Shown here one piece after another: positions 6,862 through 52,791 of a DNA stretch of 64,000 nucleotides (the first letter of the stretch is position 1; the number at the start of each line of letters is the position of its first letter). The notes under the pieces were generated by a model, which saw only the letters and a list, made by a program, of their open reading frames with translations, searched no databases and was not told the origin of the DNA. The stretch comes from Octopus vulgaris. Taxonomy: Eukaryota. Both the position numbers and the translations under genes were made by a program. The DNA lies in contig OX597814.1 in NCBI GenBank assembly GCA_951406725.2, positions 174,158,001 through 174,222,000 on the forward strand. The letters run 5' to 3'.

Positions 6862-6912
<51 letters not shown>

Positions 6913-9900: not shown

Positions 9901-10943
9901 ACTAACCGAGGTTCACAAGGGCATGGAGTACATCAGAAAGCTGTTTGAATTTCATTAATTGATCAAAACCCTCAGCAAATCTACTAATTAACTTCTTGTC
10001 CTCAGTTGCTTCCTTTGTTACAGCTAACAAACGTTGCCTCAACTTAGTAATAGTCTGTTTGCTCTGACATCGGACTTTATAACCTCTCCAGCAACTCTGG
10101 AAAAGAAAAGCAAAAAGGAATTAAGAACAATAAATCATTCTGATGCTTTTATGCACAATTTTTTTAAAAAAAGCAGGAGAAAGAGAGAATGTAAGAGACA
10201 AATTGGCACAAAAGCATTTACAAAAATCATCAAACAAAAAATAAAGCTAACTAGATACATATCTGAAACATATGGGAATGAATGAACAGAGACAAGCTCA
10301 TTTAAAGGATTTACAATCAGTACACAAATAAATAAGTGGTTCATAATAATGTGGTCAATGAATATCGTCAGCGCCACCCCGACTGGCCTCCGTGCCGGTG
10401 GCACGTAAAAAGCACCATCCGATTGTGGCCGTTTGCCAGCCTCATCTGGCACCTGTGCAGGTGGCACGTAAAAAGCACCCACTACACTCACGGAGTGGTT
10501 GGCGTTAGGAAGGGCATCCAGCTGTAGAAACGCTGCCAGATCAGACTGGGCCTGGTGCAGTCTTCTGGCTTCCCCGACCCCAGCTGAACCGTCCAACCCA
10601 TGCTAGCATGGAAAACGGACGTTAAACGATGATGATGATGATGTAGCCTAGCTACAAAGGCTTGTGTCACCGTTTATACCTGAACTATGGTTATGCTATT
10701 TGTAGCAATAGCTCAGTGTATATTGTAAACATTCAGAGACATTTGTGCACATGTGTACATGCAATGGATGTTTACGTCCAGCAAATTCCCTCACAAGCCT
10801 GGTCAGCCCAAAGCCATATAGTAAAAGATATTTGTCCAAAGTGCCACATAGTGAAACATCACGATAAGCTGCACCCAGTACACTGGGGTGGTCAGTGTTA
10901 GGAAGGACATCCAAAATATGTCAATGGAAGGCGGACATTAAAC

Positions 10944-10977
<34 letters not shown>

Positions 10978-13900
10978 TCCTTCTGTAGTACATCTAGGAG
11001 GGCAGTGACTTCAAATATGAACTTAAACCATGGCGACTTGTCCAACACATGTAACATTTTTAATTGATTACATGAGGAAGAGCATCCAGCCGTGCAATCT
11101 AAGCCAGATCAGACTGGAACTTGGTGCAGCTCTCCAACCGATGCCAGCATGAAAAGCAGACACTAAATGATGATTTTAACCTAACTGAAATAAACAGGAG
11201 TCAGAGTATTACCTTGGCACACTTCGGTGTTGTGGTCATGAGAAAGTCACACAATTCTGCCTACCTTAGTTTACCCCGATATATTTTAGGGTTGAATGGA
11301 TTACAGTAAAAAAAATAGTAAAAACATGCTGTAATGAAACCCAGGGTCCTGCCTTAGCTAATTGGGACAAATATGAAAAAAGCATACCACAAATAAAACA
11401 AAATAACTTGGCTAATAAAAACAAAACATTTACAATAACTGTATTAAAAAACAGCCATTTACTTGTATAAGAGTAGCATTATGATGTAGTTTTTTGACAC
11501 GCTTTCTGACGATCCACCCTCTCATTATACGTTGAATGAGTTGAGCTGCATGATCTCGCCTTTTCAGATACTGCTGGAGATAACGCTCAATCGTCAAGAT
11601 GGCACTCTTCTTCCTTTCAAAAAGTCTTCTCGCATAAAAAGCACGGATATTTGTCTGAAAAATTTAGAAATAGCATTATATAGTAATCAAGAGGAAGTGT
11701 GAGTATCCATGATGAATGCAGGTCTGAGACTAATGCAGTTGTCGTTCACTATGAACATCTGAAATGGATATCAGAAAGAATTTCAGGAGACTTATGTTCT
11801 ACAATGCTCTGTGATGCCATACAGATTGGCATAACATTTCATATGTACAGGAAAAGGATATAGAAACTGCATAATGCTTGTTTAGAAGAGTGGGGGAAGA
11901 GTAACTAAAGCAAATACTTTAGTCACTAATTTCTACAAAATACAAATTTTAGTGCAGATAAACCCAACTATTCAGTGTTAAGTATTTGCTTTAGTCACTC
12001 CTCCACACTCTGCCATTCATGAAAATAAGATATAGAAGTATATGTGATATATACTTATGTTTCATTCTTGAATGAAGCCATCAAGTACTTGTTTTAATGA
12101 ACTGGTCATTTAGAACAAACTACACAGGCTCATAACAATAGCTATGTGAACACCGGTCAAGTTGTAAAAATAGCAACCAAATTTCCATCAGCACCCTACT
12201 ATCTTAAAGGCAAGATGCATTAAACAGTGTGGACCCTGATATTCAAAAAGATGGAATGGTCATGACTAGAATGTGTATGGATCATACGTATTTAATTACA
12301 GCTGACTGAGTAAAACAAATGAAGGTAATGTATGATATATCTAAATAAACCTAATAAATTCTGCATTTGTTGGTGATTTTATATATTTAACCTTTTCATT
12401 ACTGTATTTATTTTGAGATGTTCTGTGTTTCTTTAAATATAACAAAGAATTTAGTAAAATAACTTAGTTATCATTCAGCTAATGTTAGGAACATAAATTG
12501 TGACTAAGGTTTGGTGGAAGATTTTAATTAAAACCTTATGAAAACAACAGAGCCAGAGCCGGTTTCATCTTGAATTCAGCATATTTTTCTGTTTTGACTC
12601 TTTTTCAATGGTATTTTAATTTCACTTACTGAGTGCAAGCATGGCTGTGTGGCTAAGTTCACTTCCCAATTACATTTCAGGTTCAAAAATATTTATTAGC
12701 AACAGAGGGAGTAATAATTCCGAGAGGTAATATTTATCTCCACTCTAACAAGGACATTCTGTTACAACAAACTTTCCTGCAGTAGTTACAATGAGAAAAT
12801 CTTCATATTGGCTTTTGGTGCAAAATGCATTCTAGTTCATATTGCTTAGCAGAGAGGTAAATCCCCACCACCTTCAGCACAGAGTCTACCACATCACTTG
12901 ATTTCGACCTTCCTTGGTCTTATCAAGGATTAACACTTGACAGCTAGAGATGTTCTAGCAGAACCTCCACATACTAAGTGAGGATAAACATTGCCTCCCA
13001 TCATTTCAAGTTCAGTTTCGCTAAACAGCACCTTGTGCTTTCTACTATAGCCCCGTGCCAACCAAAGACTAGAGAAGATTTAGCAAATAGATACTGAAAA
13101 AATCTTATCATATGTATCATCGTAGTGTCTATTTTTCCATGCTTGTAGAAGTCAGATGAGAGAGTGGTATCTAGTATAATTAAAAATTTTTAGTGCTTTT
13201 TTTTCTATCACTTGTTTCAGTCATTTGACTGCAGCCATGAAGGTTTTGACTGCACCTTGAAAGGTTTTAGTCAAACAAATCAACCTCGTGACTTTCTTTT
13301 TTCAGCCTAGTACTAATTCTGTCTCTTTTGCCAAACTGCTTAGTTATGGGGATGGAAGCACATCACTAGCTGTCAAGCAGTGATTGGGGGGGGGGGACAG
13401 ACAAACACACACACACATTTATGTACACTAACAAGGCTTTGGTCAGCCTGAGGCTATAAGTAAAAGACACTTGCCCAAGGTGCCATGCTGTTGAACTGAA
13501 CCCAGAACCATGTAGTTGCGAAGCAAGCTTCTTACCACAGAACCACACCTGTGCCAATGAGGATAAAAACCAATTAAAATGTTTACATACTTGTATCACA
13601 ATAGCTGCTGCTGTTTGTTTGGCCAAACATTTTCTAACCAGCCAACCACGGATGCAGGACTGTATTACTGTGGCAGCTTGATGCCTACGATGTAACCAGC
13701 GACGACAATATTTCTGCACAGTACAAACTGCATTTAATTTCTTTGTCCGTGTTTTAAGCAACCAATATTCAGCAGGAACCTGAAAGAAATATTACAATCT
13801 TAATCATCTTCAGTGCTTTAAATTGTTTTTCAAGATAAACTGAATCAAAATAATTTGCTGTATATATATATATATAAAAATCATTCCATGTGAGATTCAA

Positions 13901-16900
13901 GCAAATCACATCATCCCAAATATTCCTAGATATACTACCACACATCTTCACAGAAGGAAGCGTTCACATGGTTGCTTAACCCTTTAGCATTTAATCTGAC
14001 CAGATCTGACCCAAATATTCCACCTGTTTTATGTTAAAACTGTCTGGATCCAACCACTCACACCTACCCTACAATGTCATTTTAAAAACATATAGCTACA
14101 CCATTTAAATTTTGAAGTTACAAAATAATATGTGATTAATTCAAAACAGTATGAATAAATAAGCAATAAATTTCACAAAGACGTCTGAATGCTAAAGGTT
14201 AAACTGATAGAAAAAGCAAAACCTCCCTCAAATTACACTCAACTATTTTAGATAAAGAAAAATGTTAGATAATGTAATCGTACACACCCTACAAAGAGAG
14301 GACATCACAGCAAGAATGCCTAAGACCATAGGTTTGTTTGTTCAGAGCAGATCTGGGGCAAAGCAACAACCTTCCACAAATAGATATTTCTATCCAGTCA
14401 ATTTCATTTTGTTCAAACTAATTTGACATCTCTCCTGCATATACTGGTCAATGTCTGATATCTACTCATTACTTCATGCATCCTTTCTCACAAAGTTGTT
14501 CATCTAACATATCAATATCTAAAATTCATTTTTCTTCCATTATAGCAATGTAAGACTACATTTTATACATTATAGATTATTTTCCATTTGGAGAGAGAAA
14601 AAAAAGCCCTTTACAATAAACAGATTAGTTTGATAAACTATTTCTAGAAACATCTTTTACAACACTGAACACCTTTTTGATCTCCATGTGTCTAACACAC
14701 GTAGACATGCCTACAAAGTCAGAAAACAACACAGCTCCCATGACTTTCGGAAACATTTTTTCACTCTCAGAGTTGCTGAAGCATGGAATAAACTGCCTGC
14801 GTCAGTTGTTGACTGCCATGACACTGCATCCTTTAAGGCCCTCATGCTTTCCGAAATCCGCCGAAACTACACCTGATTATATATACACTTTAGATGAGTT
14901 GTAGTGCACCTGAGCACTGTACACAATTATTATTATTATTATTATTATTATTAAATCTGCAACAAGAAATATGGTTTCAATAGGTTTCTACATTCAAACA
15001 TGATAATTCCAATTCAATGTTAAAATTCTTCAAAGTCTGAGCAATCCTTAAAAGTTCTAGTTCAAATTTGGGATTTCTTATCAAGTATGTAAAACCTCCC
15101 CTCAAATATATCAAGTATCATACATTAGAATAATCCCAATTTGCATCTAATCCAGCTCAGTCATCATATTATTAAGGCTGCGAGTTGGCAGAATCATTAG
15201 CATGCTGGTCAAAATGCTTAGCGGTATTTTGCCCATCTGTACGTTCTGAGTTCAAATTATGCTGAGGTTAACTTTGCCTTTCATCCTTTCAGGTTGATAA
15301 ATCAATATATTAAGTACCAGTCAAGTACTAGGGTCGATGTAATCGACTCATCCCCTCTCCCAAAATTGCTGCCCTTGTGATAAAATTTGAAACCATTATC
15401 ATTAAGGCAGCAAGTTGGCAGAATCATTAACGCACCAGCATTTCATCCGTCTTCATATTCTGAGTTCAATATTGCCTTTTATCCTTTCTAGGTCTATAAA
15501 ATAAGAACTAATTGAGTACTGGGGAAGGGTCAACATATTCAACATCCCCCACCCCAAAATTGCTGGCCTTGCACCAAAATTTAAAATCATTATTAGCATT
15601 GTTGATTTAAACACCACATTTATAACTAATCAATTTACTCTTTACTCTTTTTCTTGTTTCAGTCATTTGACTGTGGCCATGCTGGAGCACCGCCTTTAAT
15701 CGAGCAACTCGACACCAGGACTTATTCTTTTGTAAGCCCAGTACGTATTCTATCGGTCTCTTTTGCTGAACCGCTAAGTAACGGGGACAAACACACATAC
15801 GCATATATATATATATATATACATATATACGACGGGCTTCTTTCAGTTTCCGTCTACCAAATCCACTCACAAGGCGTTGGTCGGCCCGAGGCTATAGTAG
15901 AAGACACTTCAACGTGCCACGCAGTGGGATTGAACCCGGAACCATGTGGTTGGTAAACAAGCTACTTACCACACAGCCACTCCTGCACCTATCAATCAAT
16001 TACTTTTTTTTGCTGTACTCTATATCTAATATTGAGGGTAAGTCTACTTGAATAATCTTGCTAACTCAAAATAAGGAAACAGTCTTTTAGGAATAGCAGC
16101 CAAAACAATCTAAAGCAGTTCAAAATTAGAATCAGTCTCAGATTACAACCAATAATCTCATTAACCCATTGAGTGAATAGTGCACCATTCTAATGCTTCA
16201 TTCTTCTAATACCGAAATACTTCAGTTACCACATGAATAAGAAAAAGATATTTTTCAGCATAAAATATTAATTTTCATACTTTGATCAGCAGTAGAGAAG
16301 CAGCAGTACAGCAGTCACAATTCAAGTTGAAAATACTTCTGGCTTTCTGGAAAAGATATGTGAAAGTATTAAGACATTACAAAAGGGACTAAATTACTAA
16401 AAACTTGATTAAAAATAGATTCAGACAAGACAAGTAAAGCAGATTTGACAAAAATTATTATCATAGTTTTAACATCCTCTTTTCCATACTTGCATACATC
16501 AGACAGAATTTGTTGGGGCAGATTTTCTGCAGCCAGCTGCCCTTCCTGTTGCCAACTTCATCCATTACCAAATAAGGTTATATTTCCCCATGGTCAGACA
16601 TGTTGATGAGAATATTAAAAATGAATGACACTACTCATTTAAGAGTGAGTGAGGAGTGAGTGAGTGAGGAGTGAGTGAGTGAGGAGTGAGTGAGTGAGGA
16701 GTGAGTGAGTGAGGAGTGAGTGAGTGAGGAGTGAGTGAGGAGTGAGTGAGTGAGGAGTGAGTGAGTGAGGAGTGAGTGAGTGAGGAGTGAGTGAGTGAGT
16801 GAGTGAGTGAGTGAGTGAGTGAGGAGTGAGTGAGTGAGGAGTGAGTGAGGAGTGAGTGAGTGAGGAGTGAGTGAGGAGTGAGTGAGTGAGGAGTGAGTGA

Positions 16901-17440
16901 GTGAGGAGTGAGTGAGTGAGGAGTGAGTGAGTGGTGAGTGAGGAGTGAGTGAGTGAGTGAGTGAGTGAGTGAGTGAGTGAGTGAGTGAGGAGTGAGTGAG
17001 AGTGAGTGAGTGAGTGAGTGAGTGAGTGAGTGAGTGAGTGAGGAGTGAGTGAGTGAGTGAGTGAGTGAGTGAGTGAGTGAGTGAGTGAGGAGTGAGTGAG
17101 TGAGTGAGGAGTGAGGAGTGAGTGAGTGAGGAGTGAGTGAGCGAGGAGTGAGTGAGCGAGGAGTGAGTGAGCGAGGAGTGAGTGTGTGAGTGTGAGTGTG
17201 TGAGTGTGAGTGTGAGTGTGTGTGTGTGTGTGTGTGTGAGTGTGTGTGTGTGGTGTGTGTGTGAGTGTGTGTGTGAGTGTGTGTGTGAGTGTGTGTGTGA
17301 GTGTGTGTGTGAGTGTGAGTGTGTGTGTGAGTGTGTGTGTGTGTGTGAGTGAGTGTGTGTGTGTGTGTGAGTGTGAGAGTGTGTGTGTGAGTGTGAGAGT
17401 GTGTGTGAGTGTGAGTGTGTGTGAGTGTGTGTGTGTGTGT

Positions 17441-17498
<58 letters not shown>

Positions 17499-20400
17499 AC
17501 ATGGTGGGTCTCTCAGTTTCCATCAAATAGTCACAAGGCTTAGGTCAGACCTGAATTATAGAAGATAATTGCCTAAAGTGGCACACAGTGAGATGAAACT
17601 GGAAACCAGGCAATCAGGAAGCAAACTTCTTAACCACAGAACCACATCCGCATTTATTAATTTGATACAACAGAAAAAGAAAAAAAAAAAACCCCATTAA
17701 AATAAGCTCAAGTTAATTTTATGAATTACTAAAATCCAAGTATTGCAGCAATGTATGTACATAGATATGTACATATACGTGTAAGCATGCACAACTGAAT
17801 GAAATCAGTTTTGCAAACAGTTTGGAACTTGTATGCAAAAAGTTTGCCAGCATAATCAAAAGTGAAGCTCATCACTTTGAAGGCAACAATGTACTCTAAA
17901 ATAGAGGTTTGCAAATTTATATATAAATTATTTATAAAATTTAGCCAAAAAAATAAACATTTTAAAATAAGGCTTTAACCCTTTTGTTACCGTATTTATT
18001 TTGAGATGTTCTGTGTTTCTTTCAATTACGTTAAATATAACAAAGAATTTAGTAAAATAACTTAGTTATCATTCAACTAGTGTTAGGAACATAAATTGTG
18101 ACAGGTTTGGGGAAGATTTTAATTCAAAACTTATGACAATAAGACATTTGTACTTAAAGCAAGTGCCAGTTTCAGGCAGGTTGATAATGAAAGGGTTAAA
18201 AGAATGCTTACTTTTACAGCAATAGCTCTCTTGAACCAGTTCTGAATAAAGGTTGCAGCAGCATGGCGTCTTGCAATTGTTTCTTTGAGTTGTCTAAAAG
18301 AAAAATATGCTTATCTTTCATTTGAAAAAAAATTTGAGGTTTACATCTTTGGTTTTAATGGAATAGCTTTTCAAACAATTTTGTTTCAGTTTGTCATCAG
18401 GTAAGATTTAGTCCCTTATCTTTATTGCACATAGAAATTTCATACTTTCATCCACTATGTTATGGACAGTGTATAAGTAAATGATATCAAATGCTTTTTT
18501 CTTTCCTCCCAATTAAATAAATTCAGTATAATAATTCAACTCTTTGGTATTCAGATTACTCTGTCAAATGTAATACATATTCATTCACATTAGTTTGAAT
18601 TAATCATGCATTATCTTGTAGCTTTGAGATTTCAGTGATGCAATTGCTAATGTTTGAATAACACAGTTACGTATAGGTAGGCAACCAAATTTGGCCAATT
18701 TCAACATAGAAAATTTGGGACCAGAAAAGGCTGGTTTAAATGCTAAAGGGTTAAACTAAAATCATGTTAAATATAACATACTTGAGAGCCAAAACTAAGT
18801 GTATCTGAAACACTAAAGCAAGATTTAAAGTACTAATGGTATTTATTCTTTATAAACATTTATTTTTTACACTTAAATGTTTTATAATGTAATGGTTGAG
18901 CAATCTCCTACAGACGAAACCAACGTTAATTTCAAAAGCTTAATTCACTAAAACAGCATCTGGTAGTACAGATAACAAGACTTAAATTCTATTTCAAAAT
19001 GCAAATTTAAAAAGCTCTAGGTTCAAGAGAAGCTATTTCACATGAAACTGCTAAAAGAAAAATGTAAAATGAAAATACCTGCGAGATTCCAATATTCGAT
19101 ACCATCTTTGGATCTTGATGGCACTAGATCTCTGTGTTAAAAAGCATCTACGTTCCAGCTTCATCCGTACAATTGATTGTAAAAAGACTGTTGAGGTTTT
19201 AAGACTACAATAATTCTTCCTTTCAATCTCCATTTGAATACAAGCTCGGTACCATTGCTGAATTTTAATTACAGAAGACTTTGTTCTTTTGAAATGTCTT
19301 TCTTGAATTGTTCTTCGTAGGTGAGATTGTATTGTTATTACAGAAGCCCTAACCTTTAAATAATCTTCTCTAGCCAGTTTCATTGCAATGAGAGACTGAA
19401 ACCACTGTTGAATAACTCGGATAGCCACTTGCTTTGATAAGTAGCTTTTTCGTTCTGCTCTCATACTTGAAGTAGCTCTCCACCACTCTTGCAGTTTGAC
19501 AGCACACTGTTTTCGTTTATTAAACTTCTTCTGCTCTCTATAGCACCGATATACTGACTGGATCTTTATAACAGCCGTTCGATATTCTATGTATCTTTGC
19601 TGATCACTTCGCATTAAAATAACAGCACGATACCAATTCTGAATTTTCAAGGCACTATCTTTAAGTTCAAGAAATTTCTTCTGCTGTTGCCAGCTACGAA
19701 CATGTGATTGCATTTTGATAGTATATGTCTTAAGGGAGAGATAATAGGCTCTATCAGATTTTGCTACTTTACAAGCCCTAAACCAATTTTGCAGTAAAAC
19801 AACACTTTCTTTTTGTTTGCAGAATTTTTGTCTTGTTAAGAATTGCCGGACATGTGCTTGAATTGTGGTGACAGCAATTCTTTTTTGCAGAAATTGTTGA
19901 CGGCAGATTTTCATACTTCTCAGAGCTCGAAACCTAGCTTGAAGAATCTTGGTATATTTTTTAAGTTCCAAATAATCCTTATGGCATTGTCTCATTTGAC
20001 TGATAGATCTGTACCATTGTTGAATTACAATAGCAGCATTTTTGCAATTTAAATACTTTTTCTGTTGTTGTTTTGCTCTAACTAAAGCCTGCATTCTAAT
20101 AATTGTTCTTTTTTCAGCTTGAAACTTAGTTTTAGCCAAATAAGCACGCCAACGGCACTGAATAATTACAGCAGAGTGGCATTTTAATTGTAACTCTCTT
20201 CGAACTTGACTGCCCCGAAACAAGGCTTGTATCAAGGTAACAGAGGCAATTATATTATTGTATCTTCTTCTGGCAATAAATCCTCGTAGATTGCTTTGGA
20301 TTTTTATGGCAGCATTCTTCTGGGCAATAAAATCATGGCGAACACGTTTCCCAATCAAATAAGCAGACATGTACTGCTGCAGAACACAAGTAGCAGTTTT

Positions 20401-23400
20401 TAATTTGGAGAACTCTTTTTGAGCTACATAACATTTCCATGTTGCCTGTATCAGTTGTGCTGCATTGTTTTGTCTTTTTTCTTCTTGAAGTTGTTTCTCT
20501 CGCAATTCCTGAAGAAACTGCATCCGAAGTTTTCTACTTTCAAGTTTGGATCTATAGAGTTTCTGAATTAAAATTACAGACGAAAGTAACTTTAAATATC
20601 TGGATTGGCAATAATGCTTCCTGAAGCTTGACTGAATAACTACAGCAGCTGCCACTTGACTTTTCAACAATTGGCGCTGCATTGCACCACGCCACATAGA
20701 TTGTATTTGTATAGAAGCTTGCTTTTCTTTCAAGAATTTGTTCCGTTGCTTTCTGCACAAGATAATACCTCTGTACCATCGTTGTATCTGGGTTGTTGAC
20801 TTGCAGAGGGAACGATAGTTTTGACGTTTTTGATGCATTCTTACTGCTGCTTGTAAAACACGGATAGCCTCGAGCTGTTTGTGGTACTTTCTCTGCTGGG
20901 AATACATACGGTAAAAGCTCTGTAGAACTATGACAGCACTTTTCATTCTTTGGTAATCTGAGGCAACACGGTAGCTTTCTTGATGATTCCTATACCATCT
21001 TTGAATTACAATGGCACACTGTTGTTCAAGAACACCCCTAGACACATCTAAAATGTTTGGTCTTGAATCTCCTGCATTAATCTACAAAACAATTTTTGAA
21101 AAATTAAAATCATTACATGATCCTTTTTTAAATGTTTTATAACAGTCATCAATAAGGTTTCTAAGAAAATCTGCATTCTTCATTAAAATTTTCTCCTCCA
21201 ATTTTTAGCATTATGATATTCACATTCTTGGAAAAGGTATTTTGCAGTTTTATTATATCACCAATACAATCTTTTGTGAAACTATTGCCTATTTTTCTGT
21301 TAAATGTAGGGTTTTGCTCAACAAAACACCAATAGCTGTATTGGTAGTAAGCTTGGAATTTTTACCATATAATCACTGTAACTTTGAACCTTGAAAATGA
21401 CCATCATTAAACATCCATGTTCCAATGCTAACATGGGTTGGACAATTTGACAGAATCCAACAGGTTCAATATCTGCATCTTGTGGTTTACTTTGGCATGG
21501 TTTCTATGGCTGGATACACTTCATGACACCAACCACTTTACAATAAGTAATGGGTGCATTTTTCAAGACACTAAGGCCTCCATACAGTTTGCAAGACTAA
21601 GATCCTCTTTGGCTGAGTAGAACTTATGCAAGGAGGTGAGTGTTAAAATAGGAGGGAAGAGGCCAAAATAACACAGGTTGCTTCCTGTAAAGGAGCTACA
21701 TGGCTAATTGCATTATTGAAGAGAGGGTGAGAGCGACTAGGAAGAGTTAAAAGAATAAAGGGTCATAGTGAACCCTTAAGTTATAAGGCAAGTAGGAGTG
21801 GAGGCAAGTAGAAGTGAGTGACAGAAGAACAAAGTGTAGATGAGTAAACAGTGCAAAAGTATACAAAGAATAAAAGATGGTTAAAGATGGAGAATGGGTG
21901 AAGAGCTGAATATAATTAACTGTTGAGGGACAAGTAGGGATGGTAGGAAAGAGCAGGTGACAAATGTAGAGATTAGGTAAGATTGAGGGGTGAATGGTGG
22001 CTGGGAACGTGACTTATGCTGCAAGTTGGGGAGCAAAGGGAGAGTAAGAGATGACTGACAGTAGAGAAAAAGTGGAGATCAGATCATTTCTATGTTGGCT
22101 TTAGTTCCACATATCACATGGAAAACAAAAATTCTAAGATTTCATTTGGATATGAAGCAGCAACAAGCTAAAATCCATAATTTATCAAAAGAACATAAAA
22201 CAAAACCAGACAGGAGGAAAAAAATAAACTTTAAAAAAATTTAAATGCTATATTTACCTGATTCTGAAGTATCAAACTCTTTTCTTCAAAGTCCATATCA
22301 GAATGTGGTTGGAGACTTGTATTGATTTTACTGGAGTTCAGCACCTGGGTACCATCAGCACTGTCACTTTCATCACATTCAACCTGTGACAGGTGTTTGC
22401 TATCATATTTAGAGGAAGAAAGTCTTTCATAATCAACTATTCTGGAATTGTTGGCATCTGTTATAATATTGGCAGTAGAACTAGCAGAGCTGCCTTTCTG
22501 ATCATCACCATTAGAAACCATTGAGAAATCTTGATCACAATGAGAAAATTCATCCTGAAGATCACAGTGTCCATCAGCAGGACAGTCAGCTGATAGATCA
22601 TGGTGACCATCAGTGGAGCCATTTTGTAGACCACGGTCACCGTCAGTGGAGTCATTTAGCAGAAGAACACGGTCACCATCGGCGCAGTCATTTTGCAGAG
22701 GAACATGGTCACCATCAGCGGAGTCATTTTGCAGAGGAACACAGTTACCGTCGGCAGAGTCACATTGCAGAAGAACACGGTTACCGTCAGCGGAGTCATT
22801 TTGCAAAAGAACACGATTACCATCGGCAGAGTCATTTTGCAAAAGAACACGGTCACCATCAGTGGAGTCATTTTGCAGAACACGGTCACCAACAGTGGAG
22901 TCATTTTGCAGACGAACACAGTCACCGTCAGCGGAGTCATTTTGCAAAAGAACACGGTCACCGTCAGTGGAGTCATTTCGCAGGACATGGTCACCGACAG
23001 CAGAGTCATTTCGCAGAACATGGTCACCATCAGTGGAGTCATTTTGCAGGACATGGTCACCGACAGCAGAGTCATTTCGCAGAACATGGTCACCGACAGC
23101 AGAGTCATTTCGCAGAACATGGTCACCGACAGCAGAGTCATTTCGCAGAACATGGTCACCAACAGCAGAGTCATTTCGCAGAACATGGTCACCGACAGCA
23201 GAGTCATTTCGCAGAACATGGTCACCGACAGCAGAGTCATTTCGCAGAACATGGTCACCGACAGCAGAGTCATTTCGCAGAACATGGTCACCGACAGCAG
23301 AGTCATTTCGCAGAACATGGTCACCGACAGCAGAGTCATTTTGCAGAACATGGTCACCGACAGCAGAGTCATTTCTCAGAACATGGTCACCGACAGCAGA

Positions 23401-26400
23401 GTCATTTCGCAGAACATGGTCACCGACAGCGGAGTCATTTTGCAGAAGAACATGGTTACCATCGGTGGAGTCATTTCGCAGAACATGGTCACCGACAGCA
23501 GAGTCATTTCGCAGAACATGGTCACCGACAGCAGAGTCATTTCGCAGAACATGGTCACCGAAAGCGGAGTCATTTTGCAGAAGAACACGGTTGCCATCAG
23601 TGGAGTCATTTTGCAAAAGAACACGGTCACCGTCAGTGGAGTCATTTTGCAGGACATGGTCACCGACAGCAGAGTCATTTCGCAGAACATGGTCACCGAA
23701 AGCGGAGTCATTTTGCAGAAGAACACGGTTGCCATCAGCGGAGTCATTTTGCAGAAGAACATGGTTACCATCGGTGTAGTCATTTTGCAGAAGAACATGG
23801 TCACTGTCAGTGGAGGCAGTTTGCAGAAGAACATGGTCACCATCAGTGGAGTCATTTTGCAGAACACGGTTACAGTCAGTGGAGTCATTTTGCAGATCAT
23901 GGTGACCATCAGTGGAGTCATCTAGCAGATCACGGTGGCTGTTAGTAGAGTCATCTAGCAGACCACGGTGGCTGTCGGTGGAGTCATTTTGCAGGTTATG
24001 TTCATGGTAACAGTCAAGGTTATTTTGTAGATCACAGTGACCATCAGTGGGGTCATCTAGCTGACCACAATTTTCAGCATAAGCATCTGGCTGATCACAG
24101 TGCTCGTTTGTGGTGTCTTTTTTCAAGTCACAATGGACTTTGTTGATTTTTGCTCTCTTCAGAAATTTACCAGAATCATCCAGAGTACTAAGATGTTCCA
24201 ATTCATTCAAAGTCGAAGTCTCTAATCTACTTCTAATCTCAGTTGTGCTGTTTGCTTCACTTTCGTTAATGTTAGCTTTATCATTGAGATCTATATTTCT
24301 ATCTGGTGTACCATCATTCAAGTTCTGATTATGCTCCAAATATTTATTGGGACTACAAACAGATTGTTGTTTAGAGATTGCTTGCACTCCAATATATTCA
24401 GTCACTATCTCATCTCCAGATTTCTCAACACTGCAAATGTTGCTTTGAACACCATTATCAATATCTATAGTCTGATTTAAGAGACGGGAATGGTGAGGTT
24501 TATTGTTATTGTTAATCTCAAAAGTGCCATTAAGGGGATTATTGAAATCTTCATGCTCAAATTCAATAGTTTGATTCAATTTTGATGTTTTTAAACTGAT
24601 ACATCCCTCTCTGGCATTCCGGTTTTCTTGCTTCTGTTGGCCAAGATCATTTGAATCATTTACTTTACGAATGACTAAGTTGAGTGGTGAGTTATTGGTT
24701 TCTGCATCTCTTTGATAGTTGTTCCCGTCAGAAACTAAATCCAGACATGAAACTTCTGCTATTGTGTCCAAATTACACTTTGGCAAGTAACTGTGCTCAG
24801 TATTATTGTGTTTCTGATCACACTGGAATGGTGAAAGAGCCAAATTTTTATTTGAGTGTTCTACCAATGAACTAGTCTTGTTGTATGATCCAACTTGGGG
24901 AGAAAGGACTTGTATTTTATTTATTGTATTACATTGCCATTGGGTTACCACTGCAGATTTACTCTTCATCTAAACCAAATAAAATTAAAAATAAAGCCAA
25001 CTATTAGCAAAAGAAATGTTAAAAATATTTATTTGAAAATTTGGAAGGAAAAATTACATGATATACGTTCATTCAAGCATAAATACTTACCCTCTGTAGC
25101 CTCTGCTTCTTGCGCCAGAGATATTTCCGCCAGGCCATTTGGATAACAATAGCCGCTCTTGCTTCATGTCTTATTTCAAGTAAACGTATGGCAAGGTAAG
25201 TAATATAGGTGATCACTACTTTCTCATCTGGTATAGTATTGGACATGTCCGAGTGACGCAACATAGCTGGTACACCACCAATAGCACTCACCTAAAATAC
25301 ATAAATACTTATTAAATATAAAATATCTGCAACTTTATGTAGTAACAATATTTTCATTAATCAACACAATATTTTCATTAAATATTAGCAAAATTTACAA
25401 AAAATAATTTCAAACTAACAGTTTCAATCAGTTAACTTGCCTTGCTCTCAAGAGTGAGAGCAGCGTAACTGCTAAGACAAATTTAATGACAAGCCTTATG
25501 TCAAAAATTACAATCAAATGCTTATTTCAAAATTAAAACCCTTCAAACATAATTTTTAGTGTACCATGAGAAGAGAATTGTTTCAAGTAGCACTCCCACT
25601 CCTACTGTATATTTTGGGACTACTGAACTACAAGTCTCTTTAAATTGTGATTAGCTGACTTCATGTTAAGCTTCAACTCAAAATCTCAAGTACCCTACCC
25701 CATGTCTTGCCATTTGAACTTGGTCTTTAACTTAGTAAAGGTTATCTGAGTTACATGTAGCCTTACCATAAAACCTCAAATAGAAGAAAAAAAAAGTCAC
25801 AACTTACTTTTTTAGCAATAAGTTTAAAATTTTCGGCTTCATTAGCTAAAAGAGCTTCATAAATTTTAGGTTTCCCTGTTTCTGAAACAAATTTTATAAA
25901 AACAAATATAATTTATTTTTGATAAAAGTAACTCAGTATACAGAAACAGAAATATTGGTGATGTGTCCAAGTACATGAATAAGTAACAGTACAATGCAGT
26001 AAACCAAACTTACTAGGGCTAAACCGAGTGCTGAATGTGAGTTCATCCAAACTCTGATCACTGTCTTGTTGTTGATTTTCACATTCATTGATGTAAGTTA
26101 CTGTTGTGTCCCGTTTGATTTCAGACAGTGGCAGCAATCCAGGATAATAATGATGAATTAGATAACACAAAACACGTCCATCAGAGAAGGATACTGTAAA
26201 ATTCTCAATCTGAAATTTGCAAGGAAAGCAAATAAAAAAAAAAGTTATAATGAAAGTAAATGAAAAATAGAATTAAACTCAAGTATTTCACATATCAGAA
26301 TGTGAAAGTTACTTTGTTACACCCGAGAAAAAGATTAGTCTTGTATAGCAACTTCTAAATGGATGAACTTAATCTGCTCAACCATCACAAATGCAATTCA

Positions 26401-27855
26401 AATTGGAACAAGTTTCTACAGAAATTTTATTTTAACAAATTTGTTTATTAAATTAAAATCTAATTTGTTTAATCAATTTATCGTTTGATCATTGACAACA
26501 AGTGTGATCAATGACAGAGCGGCTAACCAGCTTCAGTGCCAGTGGCACTTAAAAGACACCATTCGAGCATGATCGTTACCAGCGTTGCCTTACTGGCACT
26601 CGAGCCCCGTGCTAGTAGGGTATTAAGAGCACCATCCGAGCATGATCGTTGCCAGAGCAGCTATCTGACCTCCATGCCGGTGGCATGTAAAAGAGACAAT
26701 TCGAGCATGATTGTTACCAGCATCGCCTTACTGGCACCTGTGCCGATGGCATGTGTAAAAGATTCAAGCAAGGTCGTTGCCAGTACCGCCTGACTGGCCC
26801 CGTGCCTGTGGAATGCAAAAGCACCCACTACACTCTCGGAGTGGTTGGCGGTAGGAAGGGCATCCAGCTGTCGAAACTCTGCCAGATCAAGGTTGAAGCC
26901 TGGTGCAGCCATCTGGTTTGCCAGCCCTCAGTCATTCGTCCAACCCATGCTAGCATGGAAAACGGACGTTAAACGACGAACGATTTTGACATATGAAATA
27001 ATTGAAGCAATTGTTCTACAGTATCAAGACAACTACCTACTAGATAATTACCTCCTAATAATTATTAATTATTGTAAATATAGTCCACAGATTTCAGTTT
27101 TAGTGGTGATATAATATAAATCTTATTGGATAACAGCTAAAACAAAAATAAAACTATTTAGTTTCATTAGAATTTATTAGCACCCCAATAGTTGTACTTT
27201 TAATTTTCTCTTAATTTGGATGACTTACCCAGGGTAAATATCTGAAGGTAATTGTCTTATGGGGGTGGGGACAATTACAAAAATATTTTATAACCCTCCA
27301 GACACAATGAAGAACTAACACAATGCAATATCTTAAAGTTTGTTCTCTAGACAATATGATCATTTCACAGTATGAGATGGTCACAACCCTACTCAATTTC
27401 AGTCATAGTGAGAGTGATGGTCAGCATATCATTCCATCCACCACCCCAATGCTCTTGACAACTGAAATCCAAATGCTATTAGTCTATTATAAACTCCATT
27501 AGCAGCTAAGTGCATGTGTCTACATCAAAGGACAATTTTGTTAACACCCTCAGACTACCACTGTATGCTTCTTCTCCAACCTAAACAATGTTGGTACCAG
27601 CAGCCTTAGGCTGGCAGCTCCCATTGCTGCAAAAGCTCTCTATATCATGAAGATGTGGCTTCTCAGTTATAGTGAAAGTAACCATAGGCGCAGGAGTGGC
27701 TGTGTGGTAAGTAGCTTGTTTACCAACCACATGGTTCTGGGCTAAGTCCCACTGCGTGGCACCTTGGGCAAGTGTCTTCTACTATAGCCTCGGGCCGACC
27801 AAAGCCTTGTGAGTGGATTTGGTAGATGGAAACTGAAAGAAGCCCATCGTATATA

Positions 27856-27893
<38 letters not shown>

Positions 27894-30800
27894 TATGTGT
27901 GTGTATATGTTTGTGTATCTGTGTTTGTCCCCCCAACATCGCTTGACAACCGATGGTGGTGCGTTTACATCCCCGTAACATAGCGGTTCGGCTAAAGAGA
28001 CTGATAGAATAAGTGCTGGGCTTGTGGAGAATAAGTCTTGGGGTCGATTTGCTCGACTACAGGCAGTGTTCCAGCATGGCCACAGTCAAATGACTGAAAC
28101 AAGTAAAAGAATAAAAGCAAATACTGCACAAAAAGTGCAAACAACTCTTCTAATGTAGTAAAGATAATGCAAAACAGGAATGCAGATAACATAGGCTCTA
28201 ATGTACAACAAAAGCAACCCATCAGATGAAAAGAACTTTGAATAAGTGATCCAAAACAGAGGGGATTTTTAAGACCTGGTACACAAGCCTTTAATTACAG
28301 AAGCCCAATTAAATTACACTCAGTCCATTTAAAATTGCTGGTGATAAAAAAAAAAGTGACATCTAGCTGCAAGAACAAAATAACCATAACAAAGAGGAGA
28401 GTTTACTCTGTTGCTTGTGGTTGTCAGTTACTGAAGGGATAAAAGCGGCAAAACAGTATCAGAACAAACCTGTCTAACCTATACCATACCAGCATTAAAA
28501 AATAAGAATGAGCTTCAATATATGCAGGTTTCAGTGACAGATGTGCATTAAAAACATCACCATTTAACATCTTCCTTCTATGCTGGAATGTTTTGAACTA
28601 CTACTCATCATCATCGTATAACATCCGTTTTCAATGGGCTGGATGGTTTGACTGGGGACTGGCAAGCCAGGAGGCTGCACCATGCTTTTTACATGCCACT
28701 GGCACAAGAGCCAGTCAGGCAGCACTGCCAATGGCTATGCTCAGATTGTGCCACCGGTATAGGAATCAGTCACGTTTGGATAGTGCTTTTTACGTGGCAC
28801 GGGGAGCCAGTCAGGTGGCACTGGCATCAACTCCTCTAATGTTGTAGTAAAAATAATGCAAAACAGGCATACAGATAAGATGGGCTCTAAAGTACAACAA
28901 AAGCAACCCATCAGATGAAAAGAACTTATTGCAGCACTGGCATCAGCCACAACTACAATTTCCATCTTGATTTCGATTGGAGATTCTGACTGATTTTCAT
29001 TTTACTTGACACAAAAGGTCTCCTCAAGCACAGCATGTCACCCAACGATTCAAAGTTACTTTTTAGACTGGTTATGTGACCCTGGTATAGGTTACGACTG
29101 ATCTCACTTTACTTCCCAGGTTTTCTCAATAACAGCATATCTCCAGAGGTCTAGGTCTCGTCATTGCCTGTGAAGCCCAACATTCAACGGTCATGCTTCA
29201 TCACCTTATCCCAGGTCTTTCTGGGTCTCCCTCTTCCATGGGCTCCCTCCACTGTTAGGAAGTGACACTTCTTCACACAGCTCTCCTCATCCATACGCAG
29301 CACATGACCATACCAACGCAGTCATCTCTCTTCCACACCACATCTGATGCTTCTTATGAATCAAAAGCAGATGATTATGAGACAAGGCGGTGATCTGGCA
29401 GAAACGTTAGCATGCTGGGCAAAATGCGTAGTCGTATTTCGTCTGCCGTTACATTCTGAGTTCAAATTCCACCGAGGTCGACTTTGCCTTTCATCCTTTT
29501 GGGGTCGATAAATTAGGTACCAGTTACGCACTGAGATCGATGTAATCGACTTAATCCGTTTGTCCCCTCTGTGTTTAGCCCCTTGTGAGCAGTAAAGAAA
29601 TAGATTATGAGACATTTAGTAATATTGTCTAAATTTTTCCTCATGTAAATCAACAGGAACCTGTCTTTATATTACCTGTAAGCCATAATGAGCCGAAACT
29701 GCTTGACACCATTCAAAAAGTAGCTGATGTTTCTCATTTTCTGGTTTAAGAAGTCCTTCCACTGAATTACGTTTGACTGAAATAATGGTGAAGAATATTT
29801 TCATTACTCATTTAAAAGGGAAAAAGACCTGTCTAATATAGTGGCAATCAGATTTACTACAATTATAAATATAGTTTTATTATAATTACTCTAATTACAA
29901 ATATACATTGAATATTTGGCTAATTGCAACACCAGTGATTTTTTAAACATTTATTCCTATATCAGTAGAGGCTAAATTTGTAGCTGCTAATGTACATTTA
30001 ATACAATTAAAGTGCTTTTATTACATTTTACTAAAGTCCTGGTTAATTCATTTGTGATGAAGTCAGCACAGGGTGGATGTTTGTGATATTGGCAGGAGAG
30101 AGTAAATCCAATATAGAGAGAGTGGGTACTTGATAGAGAAGGAGTCACAGAATATTCCAAAAAACATATCCTGGTTCACAGACATTGCTAATAGAATATG
30201 TAAGTAATCTATAAATTTGTACAAAAAGACCCTTTATGGATACAAATACCAAGTCTATAACAGAATATGGGCGTAAAATTTCATTCCATAACTGCATGCT
30301 TACATACAACAAAGATCCAAATTGCAAACAACAGTGAACTTAACATCTCTAGGCTAAGGTTATATTCAAAATAACCCATGTTATTTTGGCCAAAAAGTTG
30401 ACATGTTAAAATTTGTCCAGTACGTTTTGGAAATGTTAAAAATGGTTGTCTCCAAAATACTTCAAAAGAAAATTATAGTTTCAAGAGATCAAATGTTAGG
30501 GAAAACAAAGAGGTCAGGTGGCAAGATCAAGTTAAAGTAAATTCAATAGCTTACAAGGATGAAGGATTCATATTTTCTTATAACTGTATTTCAGACGTAC
30601 TGATAAATAGTTCTAACCAATACAGCCAATATTCTTACCCAAATTTTGAGATAAAACATTCGGAGCCACTTACTTGAATAGTCCTCAACACCAGCCAACT
30701 TCCTAACAGACCTTTTCTTCTCAAGGCACCTCTTCAAAAAGTGGACTTCATCTCTAAGCTCATTGATATCCAGAAGTATATCAACCTGAAAAGAGGGCCA

Positions 30801-33800
30801 AAATAAAAGTAACCCAAAACAGAAAACAATGATTCATGCAACAATATTGAATAAAGTACAGATTTGTTTTAACATCAATGACAAAAAATATATTAAGCTT
30901 AAATTTTCGGAGGAAAGGTTTCAAATCATTTATAAACTTAGACAGCCATAACCCTATAATCCACTAAGGATACATCATTGCATACGAAATTGTTACAAAA
31001 TTTCATCTTAACCTGATCATCCCCAGCCTATATAATTTTAGAATTATTTTTTAAAACCATAAACAAGTAACTATATATACATTAATTCAATTTGCACATA
31101 AAAAAAACAAAAAAAACTGTATCCATTACCACCTTCTGCAAGGAAAGGAGACATACATAAAACTGGATTTGCTGATTCTTTGAGATCAAAATGAAATACT
31201 CAAAGAGGTTCCCAACAGTGGTACTTTTTAAACAAGTTGAGTCATAGATAGATCCCTCAAATGAGATTTAATTATTTCATTTTGAAATTATTTCTAATTC
31301 TAAATACATAACAGAATTACCTGAAAACCAGTCACAATTCTCCAAAGAAGAGTCAATGTTTTTTCTCTGTGTCCATCTACAATATCCTTAGCACATATTG
31401 AACCTGAAATATCAAATATTTTAGGATTAAAGATTTCTCAAGAATTTATGAAGAATTGGAAAAAAGAAAATGAATGAAATGAAATTAAAGTCTCCATTAA
31501 AAGATTTCATGTCAATCTACTCACAGAAAAAATAAAAGCTAAGTTACCTTTAGCAAGGCTTAGGTCCATTCCATTGTTCAATAAAGCTTTCAGCACTTTG
31601 TTAACATTGTGGATCTTCTGCAGACGACTAATTGCAGGGGCACGAAGGGAGTCAGTGAGTTCCCATTTACCTGTGAGTATTTCTATAACTCGACTAAACA
31701 AAGAAAAAATATTCTGACATTACTGTTTTGTACATAATAATAATAATAATGAAATTATTGTATACAGTGCTCAGGTGCACCACAACTTGTCAGAAAGTGC
31801 ATATAAAGTACATGCAGTAATGTAGAAATGTCTGGAAAGTGAACATGCTTGTGTGTGTATGGAGGGGAAAAAATCAAGTGTAGTGTTGGCAAATCTCAGG
31901 AAGCATATGGAAGTCTTGAAGGATGCAGTGCTCCGACAACTAACAACCGATGCCAGCAGTTTGTTCCACGCTTCAGCAACTCTTAGCGTGAAAAAATGTT
32001 TCCTAAAGTTATGGGAGCTGTGCTGTTTTCTGACTTTGTAAACATGTCCACGGGTGTTAGACGGGTGGAGTTTGAAAAGGTGCTCAGAGTTATTGTTTGT
32101 AAGATGGTTAATAATTTTATGGGTGTCTGCCAAGTCAGCTGCCAGACGTCGGAGTTTCAATGTGTCCATGCCCAGGGAAGAAAGGCATTCAGAATATGGC
32201 AAATGCCTGATGGAGAGTATTCTCTTGGTTGCACATCACTGAACGGCTTCCAGACGATTAATATCCTGGGCAAGATAGGGGTTCCAGACCAGTGATGCAA
32301 ATTCTAGGTGAGGGCCAATTATATAACAGCAAGGCATTTTCAAGCTGACCTATGTCTTATTAAATTTGGTAGACAGAAACTGCAAGATGCTTGTCAGGTG
32401 TGTGTGGTGTGGGTGTTCATATTCGACACTTGTAACCACTTGGGTGAAGTGTTGACATTCCTTTTGACATTATGACCAGTCACTGTACACTTGGAGACTT
32501 TTAGAATAAAGTATCCCTTATTTGCGAAGCAGATAAGGGCTGGAAATGAAGATCAACTTATCTGGAAACTCCCATCATAAAAATAACTCCTCATGCAACC
32601 AAAGTTAGCATAGAAAAAATGGATGTTAAATGAACAAGTATATGAAAGGATTCAATTGAAAACTTTCCTTAGAAGGGTAAAAATATAAATAACAGTTAAA
32701 TCCATCATAGCCAGTCCCAAATCTGTTTGAAAAAATGGAAGAGTGAGAAGCATAGGATTAGCAGCCCTGCACAATCAGTTCTATACACTGCTACAGAAAT
32801 GCCAATAAGAGAACATGAAAACTGGTGCTAGTAAGGCAAGACAGCCCTCAGAGACTACATATGAAGCAATGTAATGGAAGCACAAACTGGATTTACCTGT
32901 AATTTGGCATTATACTATGATGATTGAGAAAGAAAAAAGAAGTTCTAGATCTCAATCCAAAATTAGTTAAAATGTTAAAAACTTTAGATGATTTCTCATA
33001 CTGGAAGGAGATATAACATTATCAATACCGGATTGATAGATACTGGTAGAAGTGATGTTAAGCATCAAAGATTTGAACTTAGAAGAATGATAAATCTAAA
33101 CACTTCAAAAGCATTTTGTTTAAATGTTAACATTTCTGCCAGCTCAATATCTCAACAAAAATAGGTGTAGCTGCGTGGCTAAAAGGTTCACTTTACAATG
33201 GAGTTTCAGTTTCAATCCTCCTATACAACACCATGGGCAATATCTTTCTTCAGTCGACCAAAGCTTTGTCAATGAAATTGAGTTATATGGAAACTGTAAA
33301 AACCTGTCAGAGACACCATTCTTATGGTGGTAGGCTTAATTTGATGCTTGATTTAACCCTTTAGCATTCAGATTATTCTATCTAATGTAATATTTATCCA
33401 TATTATTTTAACCTAATCATGCATTATTTCATAGCTTCAAGATTTCAACAACGTTATCACCTATTTTTAGAATGACATTATAGGTTGGTGTGAGATACCA
33501 AATCTAGGCAGTTTTAACATAAAATATTATTTGGGCCGGATGTGGCTAGTTTACCCTAAAGGGTTAATATCTCCACCACTACCACCGCCTGGTCCTAAGG
33601 TGTTTAACAAAATCAACTGTTGCAAGCATTAGAGTCAGGCCTCCAGCTGGAGGATAATGTTCTGTCCCATGCCTGTACCCTTTTTCCTCTGATCAAGTTA
33701 AGAAAAAGAAATAAAGAAAGTCCTTACGTTAGACGAATTCCATCTCGTAGATCAACAGCAAGGTTAGAAACTGCGTAATCAAATTCATGCAAAGGTGTTT

Positions 33801-38190: not shown

Positions 38191-38256
<66 letters not shown>

Positions 38257-40072: not shown

Positions 40073-40117
<45 letters not shown>

Positions 40118-45452: not shown

Positions 45453-45495
<43 letters not shown>

Positions 45496-52563: not shown

Positions 52564-52594
<31 letters not shown>

Positions 52595-52723
52595 ACAGGA
52601 TGTCCCAAAAAAATGTATACACATAGTGGTTCGGCAAAAGAGAACGATAGAATAAGTACTACGCTTACAAAGAATAACAAATTTACAATTATTTAAGGCT
52701 TGTATACATTTTTTGGGGACACC

Positions 52724-52791
<68 letters not shown>

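Follow-up and report, generated by a model that had tools for sequence, protein, structure and literature searches.

Structure of the ASPM locus and its expanded exon

The window, a 64,000-nt stretch of Octopus vulgaris contig OX597814.1, contains the ASPM gene of this species, the product of which is 100% identical to CAI9716381.1 (P0001). The whole coding span (3822..56389) lies on the minus strand, as do all features described below, and encodes in order an ASH domain, an N-terminal disordered region of about 460 aa, the calponin-homology domains CH1 and CH2, the motif IQ1, an expanded exon, the IQ rod and a C-terminal domain. Domain annotation recovered the ASH domain (PF15780, E 1.3e-20, residues 35-129), two calponin-homology stretches (PF00307) and the IQ array (PF00612, E 2.5e-52; 33 regex motifs). 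The C-terminus is 83-95% identical among octopods, and residues 700-1210 are 55-58% identical to those of other molluscs.

The expanded exon (22258..24969) spans 2712 nt and 904 codons with zero stops, is bounded by an AG acceptor at 24971-24970 and a GT donor at 22257, and is in phase 0 at both ends. It is preceded by a GT-AG intron of 121 nt (24970..25090) at an ancestral phase-0 position and by an exon encoding the end of CH2 and IQ1 (25091..25291), and is followed by a GT-AG intron (21082..22257) that is defined by its splice signals and lies outside the coverage of the read test, and by the main IQ-array exon (19079..21081, about 668 codons, pI 10.8), which opens with about 21 non-IQ residues. 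The initial annotation had described an acidic, D/N/S/H-rich exon of this length directly after IQ1, with canonical splice sites, phase 0-0 and a 121-nt upstream intron, and all of these points, including the coordinates, were reproduced, which confirms the exon as real. The encoded sequence contains 15% D, 10.7% N, 10.1% S and 5.2% H, with a net charge of -97 and a pI of 4.5. The open frame is more than chance: the two non-repeat parts (325 codons at the 5' end, 112 at the 3' end) each hold a single open frame, with 21 and 56 stops in the other two frames of the 5' part and 4 and 22 in those of the 3' part, and, given their composition, these parts would be free of stops with a probability of about 2e-11 and 5e-4, respectively. 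The exon matched no Pfam family and no usable ESM Atlas look-alike. AlphaFold predictions, with a mean pLDDT of 32 for the exon alone and 30.5 for the start of the exon together with CH2, showed no confident beta-solenoid and were otherwise uninformative, as even the known CH fold scored below 50. Judged from composition and the lack of a Pfam match, the exon likely encodes an acidic disordered chain.

A length of about 3220 aa had previously been estimated, which holds if a probable 22-codon exon (16281..16346, ends approximate), present in the O. bimaculoides and Argonauta proteins and missing from the O. vulgaris annotation, is joined to the 3201-aa model. The accompanying argument that the protein approaches human length by another route fails, because the octopus protein is exceeded in length by 21 of the 24 ASPMs from other molluscs and is thus not a long one. 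Octopods have 32-33 IQ-like motifs versus 47-69 in 23 of the 24 other molluscs, and their N-terminal disordered region compares with one of about 870-1520 aa in other molluscs. Alignment of the downstream IQ repeats fits many offsets equally and does not single out the repeats that were lost.

Transcript evidence

The joint 25091/24969 was present on unbranched spliced contigs in all four runs, each from a different study, with the 121 nt skipped. These contigs were taken as transcripts because they are spliced, no run being on record as RNA, and they end shortly past entry into the expanded exon, the junction tested being the 5' joint. No skip branch or loose end was observed at 25091 in any of the four runs, the contigs being of a kind that drops rare variants, and for a loose contig end at 24306 (run X18) no place was found within the window. 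All three annotated O. vulgaris isoforms include the exon, as do five of the six octopod protein entries, the exception being an old O. bimaculoides model (P0007) that joins to a weak internal AG at 21018, with the lowest pyrimidine content of nine acceptors, and also loses other in-exon pieces. The proposal that the exon is skippable is not borne out by these observations.

A regulated cassette, skipped by tissue or stage to yield a rigid short form alongside a decoupled long form, is accordingly an improbable reading. The reading frame would survive skipping of a phase 0-0 exon, regulated skipping is known for the adjoining exon 18 in human (PMC10436222, PMC10993532), and the exon is absent from P0007. 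However, the unbranched joint in all runs argues against regular skipping, the phase symmetry is inherited since the ancestral exon described below was already phase 0-0, and P0007 uses its weak acceptor and drops in-exon pieces in the manner of homology-driven models. An assembly or gene-prediction artefact, for which could be cited the tandem repeat that makes up half of the exon, with a copy number open to mis-assembly, and the contigs that stop soon after entering it, is largely refuted and can be given almost no weight, given the spliced joint in four studies and the recovery of the orthologous exon, its ends matching, from three independent assemblies.

Distribution across animals and probable origin from an ancestral IQ exon

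An expanded exon with matching ends is present in O. vulgaris (904 aa), O. bimaculoides (RefSeq protein, 500 aa) and Argonauta hians (764 aa), with net charges of -97, -46 and -109, respectively, such that it is acidic in all three octopods and represents an 8- to 14-fold expansion over a 65-codon ancestor. Among 235 ASPM-like proteins, a sample for which searches and a metagenome scan recovered no squid, cuttlefish, Vampyroteuthis or Nautilus ASPM, the only parallel was a leech gene model, and by sequence comparison the expanded exon is octopod-restricted in this sample, in agreement with the earlier suggestion of lineage restriction. Three further candidates were rejected: L021, put forward as a third case, proved to be a membrane protein of no relation that carries one IQ, while P0231 is a fungal model of low quality and P0247 a short, unnamed fragment. 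The leech protein (Helobdella robusta ESO10779.1, P0193) resembles those of octopods in having an acidic IQ-free region from IQ1 onwards with the C-terminal domain retained, but the stretch is 1267 aa with no similarity to the octopod exon, the IQ array is nearly gone (two motifs), and the gene model is unverified.

The slot of the expanded exon is occupied by a conserved 65-codon phase 0-0 exon in L005, L006 and L018, encoding IQ2, IQ3 and half of IQ4, and its 5' phase-0 intron position is common to L004, L005, L006, L011, L013, L014 and L018. The ape isoforms P0144 and P0145 break at the end of this slot; the designation human exon 17 is derived from the start of exon 18 at aa 1356 (PMC10436222) together with the P0144/P0145 junction. 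The IQ2-IQ4 register is kept in 28 of 38 proteins and its spacing is otherwise retained from cnidarian-like to mammalian ASPM, while in octopods the IQ-free run after IQ1 extends for 534-938 aa and the uninterrupted CH2-IQ1-IQ2-IQ3-IQ4 series that is usual for the family, though not strictly diagnostic of it, was not found. Because the slot corresponds to this conserved exon, the description of the octopod sequence as an inserted exon is not supported; there is no new cassette, and the shared 5' intron position and in-register IQ2 point to the expanded exon as the ortholog of the ancestral IQ2-IQ4 exon, an old exon rebuilt from within.

Traces of the ancestral exon appear to persist at the ends. 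The first ten codons (24940..24969) correspond to the first half of IQ2 in decayed form, keep the register of IQ2 in other animals, and score 11.8 in O. vulgaris (true IQ2, 10.3-24.0), the top of 892 windows, which bears out the initial impression of a decayed IQ; the Argonauta remnant scores 2.3, with 6 of 752 windows as high. The 3' unique acidic part (22258..22594) has a common end with Argonauta. At the 3' boundary the phase (0) matches that of the ancestral exon, with likeness to IQ4 only at a two-codon offset and scores of -0.5 to 3.8, versus 11.9-22.4 for true ends, that lie in the top 0.4-4% of windows; the terminal ten residues are a possible weak remnant of the IQ4 lead-in.

Two other sources were tried and rejected. 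For derivation from part of the N-terminal disordered region by a move, no domain score exceeded 4.1 bits when 45 N-terminal regions were searched with a profile built from the 5' part of the exon (means of -1.9 for molluscs, -3.1 for shuffled and -3.2 for reversed sequence), and BLAST returned two low-complexity-like matches only, so that no support for homology emerged. For duplication within the window, BLASTN gave zero matches outside the exon. The course of events may have been that, before the split of Argonauta and Octopus, IQ2-IQ4 were lost after the tenth codon of the ancestral exon, that this same ancestral octopod exon acquired an 11-residue repeat as well as a unique stretch of acidic sequence, and that the repeat then grew and was homogenised separately in the Argonauta and Octopus lineages.

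Minisatellite and sequence constraint

Half of the expanded exon is a coding minisatellite (22595..23994) of 33/36-nt units (11/12 aa, of the type ND-S-T/A-D/V-G-D), with a tandem array of period 33 and 41 copies, or about 43 units, in O. vulgaris, about 12 units in O. bimaculoides and 29 in Argonauta. This array was unmentioned in the initial annotation. All 41 of 41 head-to-tail units are multiples of 3 nt, keeping the frame. Among repeat units, pN/pS is 0.61 in the coding frame versus 0.44-0.47 in the two other frames, and therefore gives no sign of amino-acid selection. Identity to Argonauta is 41% in the 5' part, 40% in the array and 29% in the 3' part, versus 58% in the N-terminal disordered region and 65% in the IQ exon, making the expanded exon the least conserved part of octopod ASPM.

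Conserved block and candidate regulatory sites

The best-conserved block of the exon (24748..24789) comprises 12 residues identical with Argonauta (permutation P about 0.003). This is the longest identical run (P 0.0026), and the best 15-residue window has 14 of 15 identities (P 0.0032); the N-terminal disordered region likewise shows clustered identity (P 0.016-0.044). Within the block, and above its flanks in conservation, lies LDTIAE (24754..24771), a predicted PP2A-B56 docking site that matches [LMFI]xx[ILV]xE with the preferred L1 and I4 and the invariant E6 in all three species, following the definition and position rules of PMC10970375. The motif was spotted post hoc, the conserved block having been seen first. 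Its flanks have Asp at P2 in two of three species (Gly in O. bimaculoides) and Ser at P8 in all three, with no acidic or phosphorylatable residue at P7 or P9 and no clear upstream basic patch. It is the only strict match in the exon in all three species. When the first 300 exon aa are shuffled, 12-17% of the shuffles yield a strict match by chance, and octopod ASPM has additional loose matches elsewhere. None of the octopod N-terminal disordered regions contains a strict match. The idea of a moved motif is not supported, as other ASPM N-termini have no consistent match, with strict matches in 13 of 35, about the level of chance.

Around this block, two Ser-Pro sites (24834 and 24690) and two N-x-T-hydrophobic sites (24531 and 24477), together spanning 24466..24834, are kept in all three species, and are candidate CDK1 and Plk1 sites by kinase consensus. 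These correspond to two of five S/T-P and two of four Plk1-like sites. S/T-P motifs in the first 260 aa number 5 versus 1.3 expected in O. vulgaris and 2 versus 1.1 in Argonauta; Plk1-like and CK2-like motifs in the O. vulgaris exon showed no enrichment over shuffles.

A possible explanation for the whole region, which we rate as a serious but minority one, is near-neutral expansion, whereby a permissive joint between head and rod accumulated sequence through insertion and slippage, selection keeps only the frame, and the LxxIxE motif is incidental. The lowest identity in the protein, the spread in repeat units (about 12, 29 and 43 across the three species) and the pN/pS of the array all agree with this, and the unrelated 1267-aa leech stretch at the same site suggests a permissive spot. 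However, the 12-residue block and other short motifs persist against a background identity of 42%, strong acidity is maintained in all three species, and a cost-free loss of IQ2-IQ4 is unlikely because their spacing is so widely kept.

Proposed function of the rebuilt exon

The reading we prefer, which we hold to be about evenly poised between right and wrong, is that the ancestral IQ2-IQ4 exon, in an octopod-restricted change within the sample, became a constitutive, acidic and likely disordered linker with predicted PP2A-B56 docking near the microtubule-binding CH domains. The intact CH2-IQ1 head would then have a flexible instead of a rigid tether to the calmodulin-binding rod, itself shortened. 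The first 260 exon residues could act as a phospho-control patch, combining B56 docking with sites of CDK1 and Plk1 type, and would regulate the focusing of poles in the way of the LxxIxE motif in fly Asp, and the minisatellite would be mostly a length-variable acidic spacer under little sequence constraint.

Decoupling of the CH head or masking of the rod, as initially proposed, is a plausible conjecture. Electrostatic masking as the main role is unlikely; in this reading the acidic chain would fold onto the basic IQ rod, or onto the CH domains as a mimic of tubulin tails, and would damp lattice binding or replace calmodulin as counter-ion of the rod until released by phosphorylation or calmodulin. 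The exon charge of -46 to -109 adjoins a rod of +147 to +155, whole-protein charge is +116 to +160 in octopods versus +227 to +411 in 24 other molluscs, and in the fly the CH fragment on its own bundles microtubules to excess and has to be restrained (PMC4674282). Against this, charge differs more than twofold between the two Octopus species, and calmodulin, established as a ligand for IQ motifs (PMC4674283), would already coat the rod in cells.

The link to brain size drawn in the initial annotation found no support, the brain-size function of fly Asp lying outside the IQ region: the N-terminal ASH and unstructured region suffices (PMC4674283, PMC12520113), and the fly LxxIxE mutant shows no microcephaly (PMC12701367). 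It is a long shot that the octopod rewiring, with the joint cut, the rod halved and a PP2A-B56/CDK1/Plk1 switch and length-tunable acidic repeat added, alters spindle-pole behaviour in neural progenitors and aids prolonged, massive neurogenesis, a similar leech swap at the same site maybe being independent.

Comparison with known ASPM proteins and docking motifs

Links to brain size have been drawn for both the length of ASPM and its number of IQ motifs. The largest-brained invertebrates sampled are among the molluscs with the fewest IQ-like motifs (32-33, where freshwater mussels reach 69), and the break in the most conserved IQ joint offers a natural test of rigid head-rod coupling and of the importance of IQ number. 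If the candidate B56 site is real, a phosphatase docking motif was born in new sequence in the very family in which the fly protein carries such a motif at another place; an inert exon would instead reveal striking tolerance in an essential spindle protein.

Octopod ASPM follows the domain order of the ASPM/Asp family (MCPH5), from the ASH domain through the CH pair and the IQ array to the conserved C-terminal domain, and differs in the 500-904 acidic residues in place of IQ2-IQ4. The human exon 18 cassette (isoform 2) is likewise giant and in the same part of the gene, but it consists of the IQ array and undergoes skipping, whereas the octopod exon occupies the preceding slot, is IQ-free and shows no skipping. 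In Drosophila Asp, an LxxIxE motif (aa 350-356) binds the PP2A-B56 subunits Wdb/Wrd, and mutant poles are less robust (PMC12701367). Like the octopod site, it lies in an unstructured part near microtubule-binding regions, but it is N-terminal to the CH domains, whereas the octopod candidate is C-terminal to CH2-IQ1 in new sequence and lacks the Glu of fly Asp at P7-P8, having instead Asp at P2 and Ser at P8; the human ASPM match is placed at the C-terminus (3266-3271; PMC12701367). The BubR1 KARD motif (LSPIIEDS; PMC10970375), in an unrelated protein, agrees with the octopod motif at L1, I4 and E6, in a P2 that is negative or can be phosphorylated, and in Ser at P8, but its P7 Asp is absent from the octopod motif, in which P2 holds a fixed Asp (replaced by Gly in O. 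bimaculoides) instead of a CDK1 site.

Structure and distribution of the expanded exon

The window carries the ASPM gene of Octopus vulgaris, whose product matches CAI9716381.1 at 100% identity and is a variant form of a known protein. The expanded exon of this gene, from 24969 to 22258 on the minus strand, reads open through 904 codons between an AG acceptor and a GT donor, is in phase 0 at either end and lies 121 nt past the exon for the end of the second calponin-homology domain (CH2) and the first calmodulin-binding motif (IQ1), and the initial annotation is confirmed in each of these features. The coding frame is the sole open frame in both the unique 5' part (325 codons; chance near 2e-11) and the unique 3' part (112 codons; chance near 5e-4), and between them lies a tandem array (22595-23994, minus strand; period 33, 41 copies) whose units all keep the frame because they measure 33 nt (25/41), 36 nt (15/41) or 69 nt (1/41). 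The exon is included in all three annotated O. vulgaris isoforms and is 904 aa long in this species, 500 aa in O. bimaculoides (XP_052827235.1) and 764 aa in Argonauta hians (GAB1599350.1), the Argonauta-Octopus split having a fossil minimum of about 29 Ma (PMC12682272); that it is an artefact is scarcely credible. Net charges of -97, -46 and -109, respectively, would suit electrostatic masking of the basic IQ array (the rod) or of the CH domains, which we regard as improbable.

Among 235 proteins with a CH2-IQ1 anchor and a tail of at least 300 aa, an IQ-free run of at least 200 aa was found in 12, comprising five octopod entries, one from the leech Helobdella and six others. In the last six the run is close to neutral (net -15 to +14); three of these runs sit far from IQ1, and the other three, 228-244 aa long, come from unnamed proteins. 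The leech run (1267 aa, net -69) begins directly after IQ1, and sequence comparison revealed no similarity between it and the octopod exon, which is absent from the non-cephalopod ASPMs sampled, a point on which the initial annotation had made the novelty of the exon depend. The searches recovered no ASPM sequence from squid, cuttlefish or Nautilus, so 'octopod-specific' refers here solely to presence in octopods and absence from the sampled non-cephalopods. In the leech model (P0193, ESO10779.1) the acidic region, at residues about 1810-3300, replaces nearly the whole IQ array and leaves the C-terminal domain intact, possibly representing an independent parallel or a faulty gene model. IQ-free runs within the IQ array, far from IQ1, were seen in Strigamia (P0201, about 3180-3890; 712 aa) and Bradybaena (P0020, about 3400-3610; 212 aa). 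A further candidate, L021:893-3391, was rejected as unrelated: its open frame of 833 aa has a single IQ motif and an acidic stretch, together with numerous predicted membrane segments.

Origin from an ancestral exon and effect on protein size

The first ten codons of the expanded exon are in register with IQ2, at an offset shared by 37/39 invertebrate ASPMs, and the Octopus exon start scores 11.8 as IQ2 (true IQ2, 10.3-24.0), above all 892 other windows, bearing out the earlier suggestion of a decayed IQ; the Argonauta start scores more weakly. A phase-0 intron after IQ1 is common to the genomic loci of other ASPMs, and at three of these (L005, L006 and L018) the next exon has 65 codons, is phase 0-0 and codes for IQ2, IQ3 and the opening half of IQ4; two loci (L013 and L014) depart from this arrangement. 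The end of this 65-codon exon is also where two short isoforms from apes break, and the register is kept in 28/38 proteins. Human exon 18 begins at residue 1356 (PMC10436222), which places the octopod exon in the slot of exon 17; the 3' end bears only a weak likeness to the IQ4 lead-in. Judged from the shared intron, slot and register, the octopod exon is an ancient symmetric exon remodelled internally rather than the newly inserted cassette of the initial annotation. No published account of it was found in a search of the open-access literature, and the sequence is in public annotations yet seemingly undescribed. Of two related papers, one treats ASPM exon 18 (PMC10993532) and the other, on heat stress and male fertility in Octopus maya, names ASPM as an up-regulated transcript (PMC6341066).

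The proposal that octopus ASPM approaches human length by a route other than IQ expansion fails, as 21/24 non-cephalopod molluscan ASPMs exceed the 3201-aa octopus protein. By one regular expression, 23/24 of these molluscs have 47-69 IQ-like motifs, compared with 32-33 in octopods. Octopod ASPMs extend 1654-2036 aa beyond CH2 (median 1836 aa in 34 others), suggesting that the expanded exon offsets the shorter rod in residue count, although a disordered chain would not hold its span. The octopod N-terminal disordered region (window 47115-48410) measures about 460 aa, no more than half the length found in other molluscs (about 870-1520 aa), whose acidic segment it lacks. Two contigs carry about 3330-3345 nt ahead of residue 1052, as expected if a short leader precedes 3153 nt of coding sequence; the reduced length of the N-terminal region is thus probably real rather than an annotation gap. 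A probable 22-codon Cys-rich exon at about 16346-16281 (minus strand) is missing from all three isoforms modelled for O. vulgaris, either because the annotation overlooked it or, perhaps, because it is a small cassette; the segment is present in O. bimaculoides and Argonauta ASPM.

Splicing

The stretch is present in 20/24 sequencing runs, none recorded as RNA, and splicing was assessed in contigs of four runs from four studies over 24000-26500. In all four, a single contig lacks three introns, that at 25091/24969 among them, and continues into the expanded exon, so this inclusion junction is seen spliced. The 3' junction (22258/21081) falls outside that stretch and is predicted from canonical sites and from exon ends that agree between the protein models of three species. 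No contig branched at 25091 in any of the four runs, contrary to the earlier description of the exon as skippable; because rare variants are lost from contigs, infrequent skipping could go unseen. One old O. bimaculoides model is without the exon, and other in-exon pieces are missing from it too. A regulated, alternatively skipped cassette is accordingly given very little weight. In run X1 a depth-2 contig spans the 121-nt intron (24970-25090), representing pre-mRNA, intron retention or DNA. In run X18 (one of the four) a 469-nt contig fuses unplaced sequence, not found within the window, to the exon at 24306; about 600 codons separate this point from the next in-frame Met downstream, and the contig is more probably a chimera than evidence of an alternative first exon. 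Elsewhere, intron 1 contains a tandem repeat (54830-55433; 13-residue period, open frames on both strands), and short intronic open frames at 31771-32235, 41858-42247 and 43706-44167 presumably resemble C-terminal fragments of LINE-type reverse transcriptases.

Constraint and possible function

The exon's 5' part is 41% identical to that of Argonauta, its array 40% and its 3' part 29%, compared with 58% for the N-terminal disordered region and 65% for the IQ exon, and the array units carry no frame-specific pN/pS signal. Near-neutral expansion of the exon would be consistent with such divergence and is a possible, if rather unlikely, explanation; the 5' part does contain one block of 12 residues identical between Octopus and Argonauta (permutation P 0.0026). 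Within this block lies the exon's single strict LxxIxE, present in 3/3 species (LDTIAE at 24754..24771, minus strand, in the window), a motif that turns up in 12-17% of shuffles and was recognised only after the block was seen. Ser/Thr-Pro and Plk1-like sites match known kinase consensus sequences, and 2/5 and 2/4 of these candidates, respectively, are kept in all three species. In the octopod motif L1, I4 and E6 are the preferred residues, P2 is Asp in two species and P8 is Ser, features raising affinity for the B56 subunits of PP2A (PMC10970375). No strict LxxIxE was found in octopod N-terminal regions; in other ASPMs these regions hold one in 13/35 cases, about the chance level and not consistently, so relocation of the motif from there is unsupported.

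With roughly even confidence, we propose that the exon would tether head and rod as a flexible acidic linker that is constitutively included; its 5' part may dock PP2A-B56 and bear mitotic kinase sites next to the CH domains, and its tandem array would be a loosely constrained spacer. In the fly, the N-terminal part of Asp suffices for brain size and calmodulin binding is dispensable (PMC4674283, PMC12520113), and the CH fragment cross-links microtubules, with pole focusing needing the remaining protein (PMC4674282); by analogy, a change at the CH2-IQ joint would be more likely to affect pole focusing than brain size. The LxxIxE at 350-356 of Drosophila Asp is a binding site for B56 subunits, and its mutation gives less robust poles and delayed development without microcephaly (PMC12701367); the octopod motif is a predicted docking site within the expanded exon.
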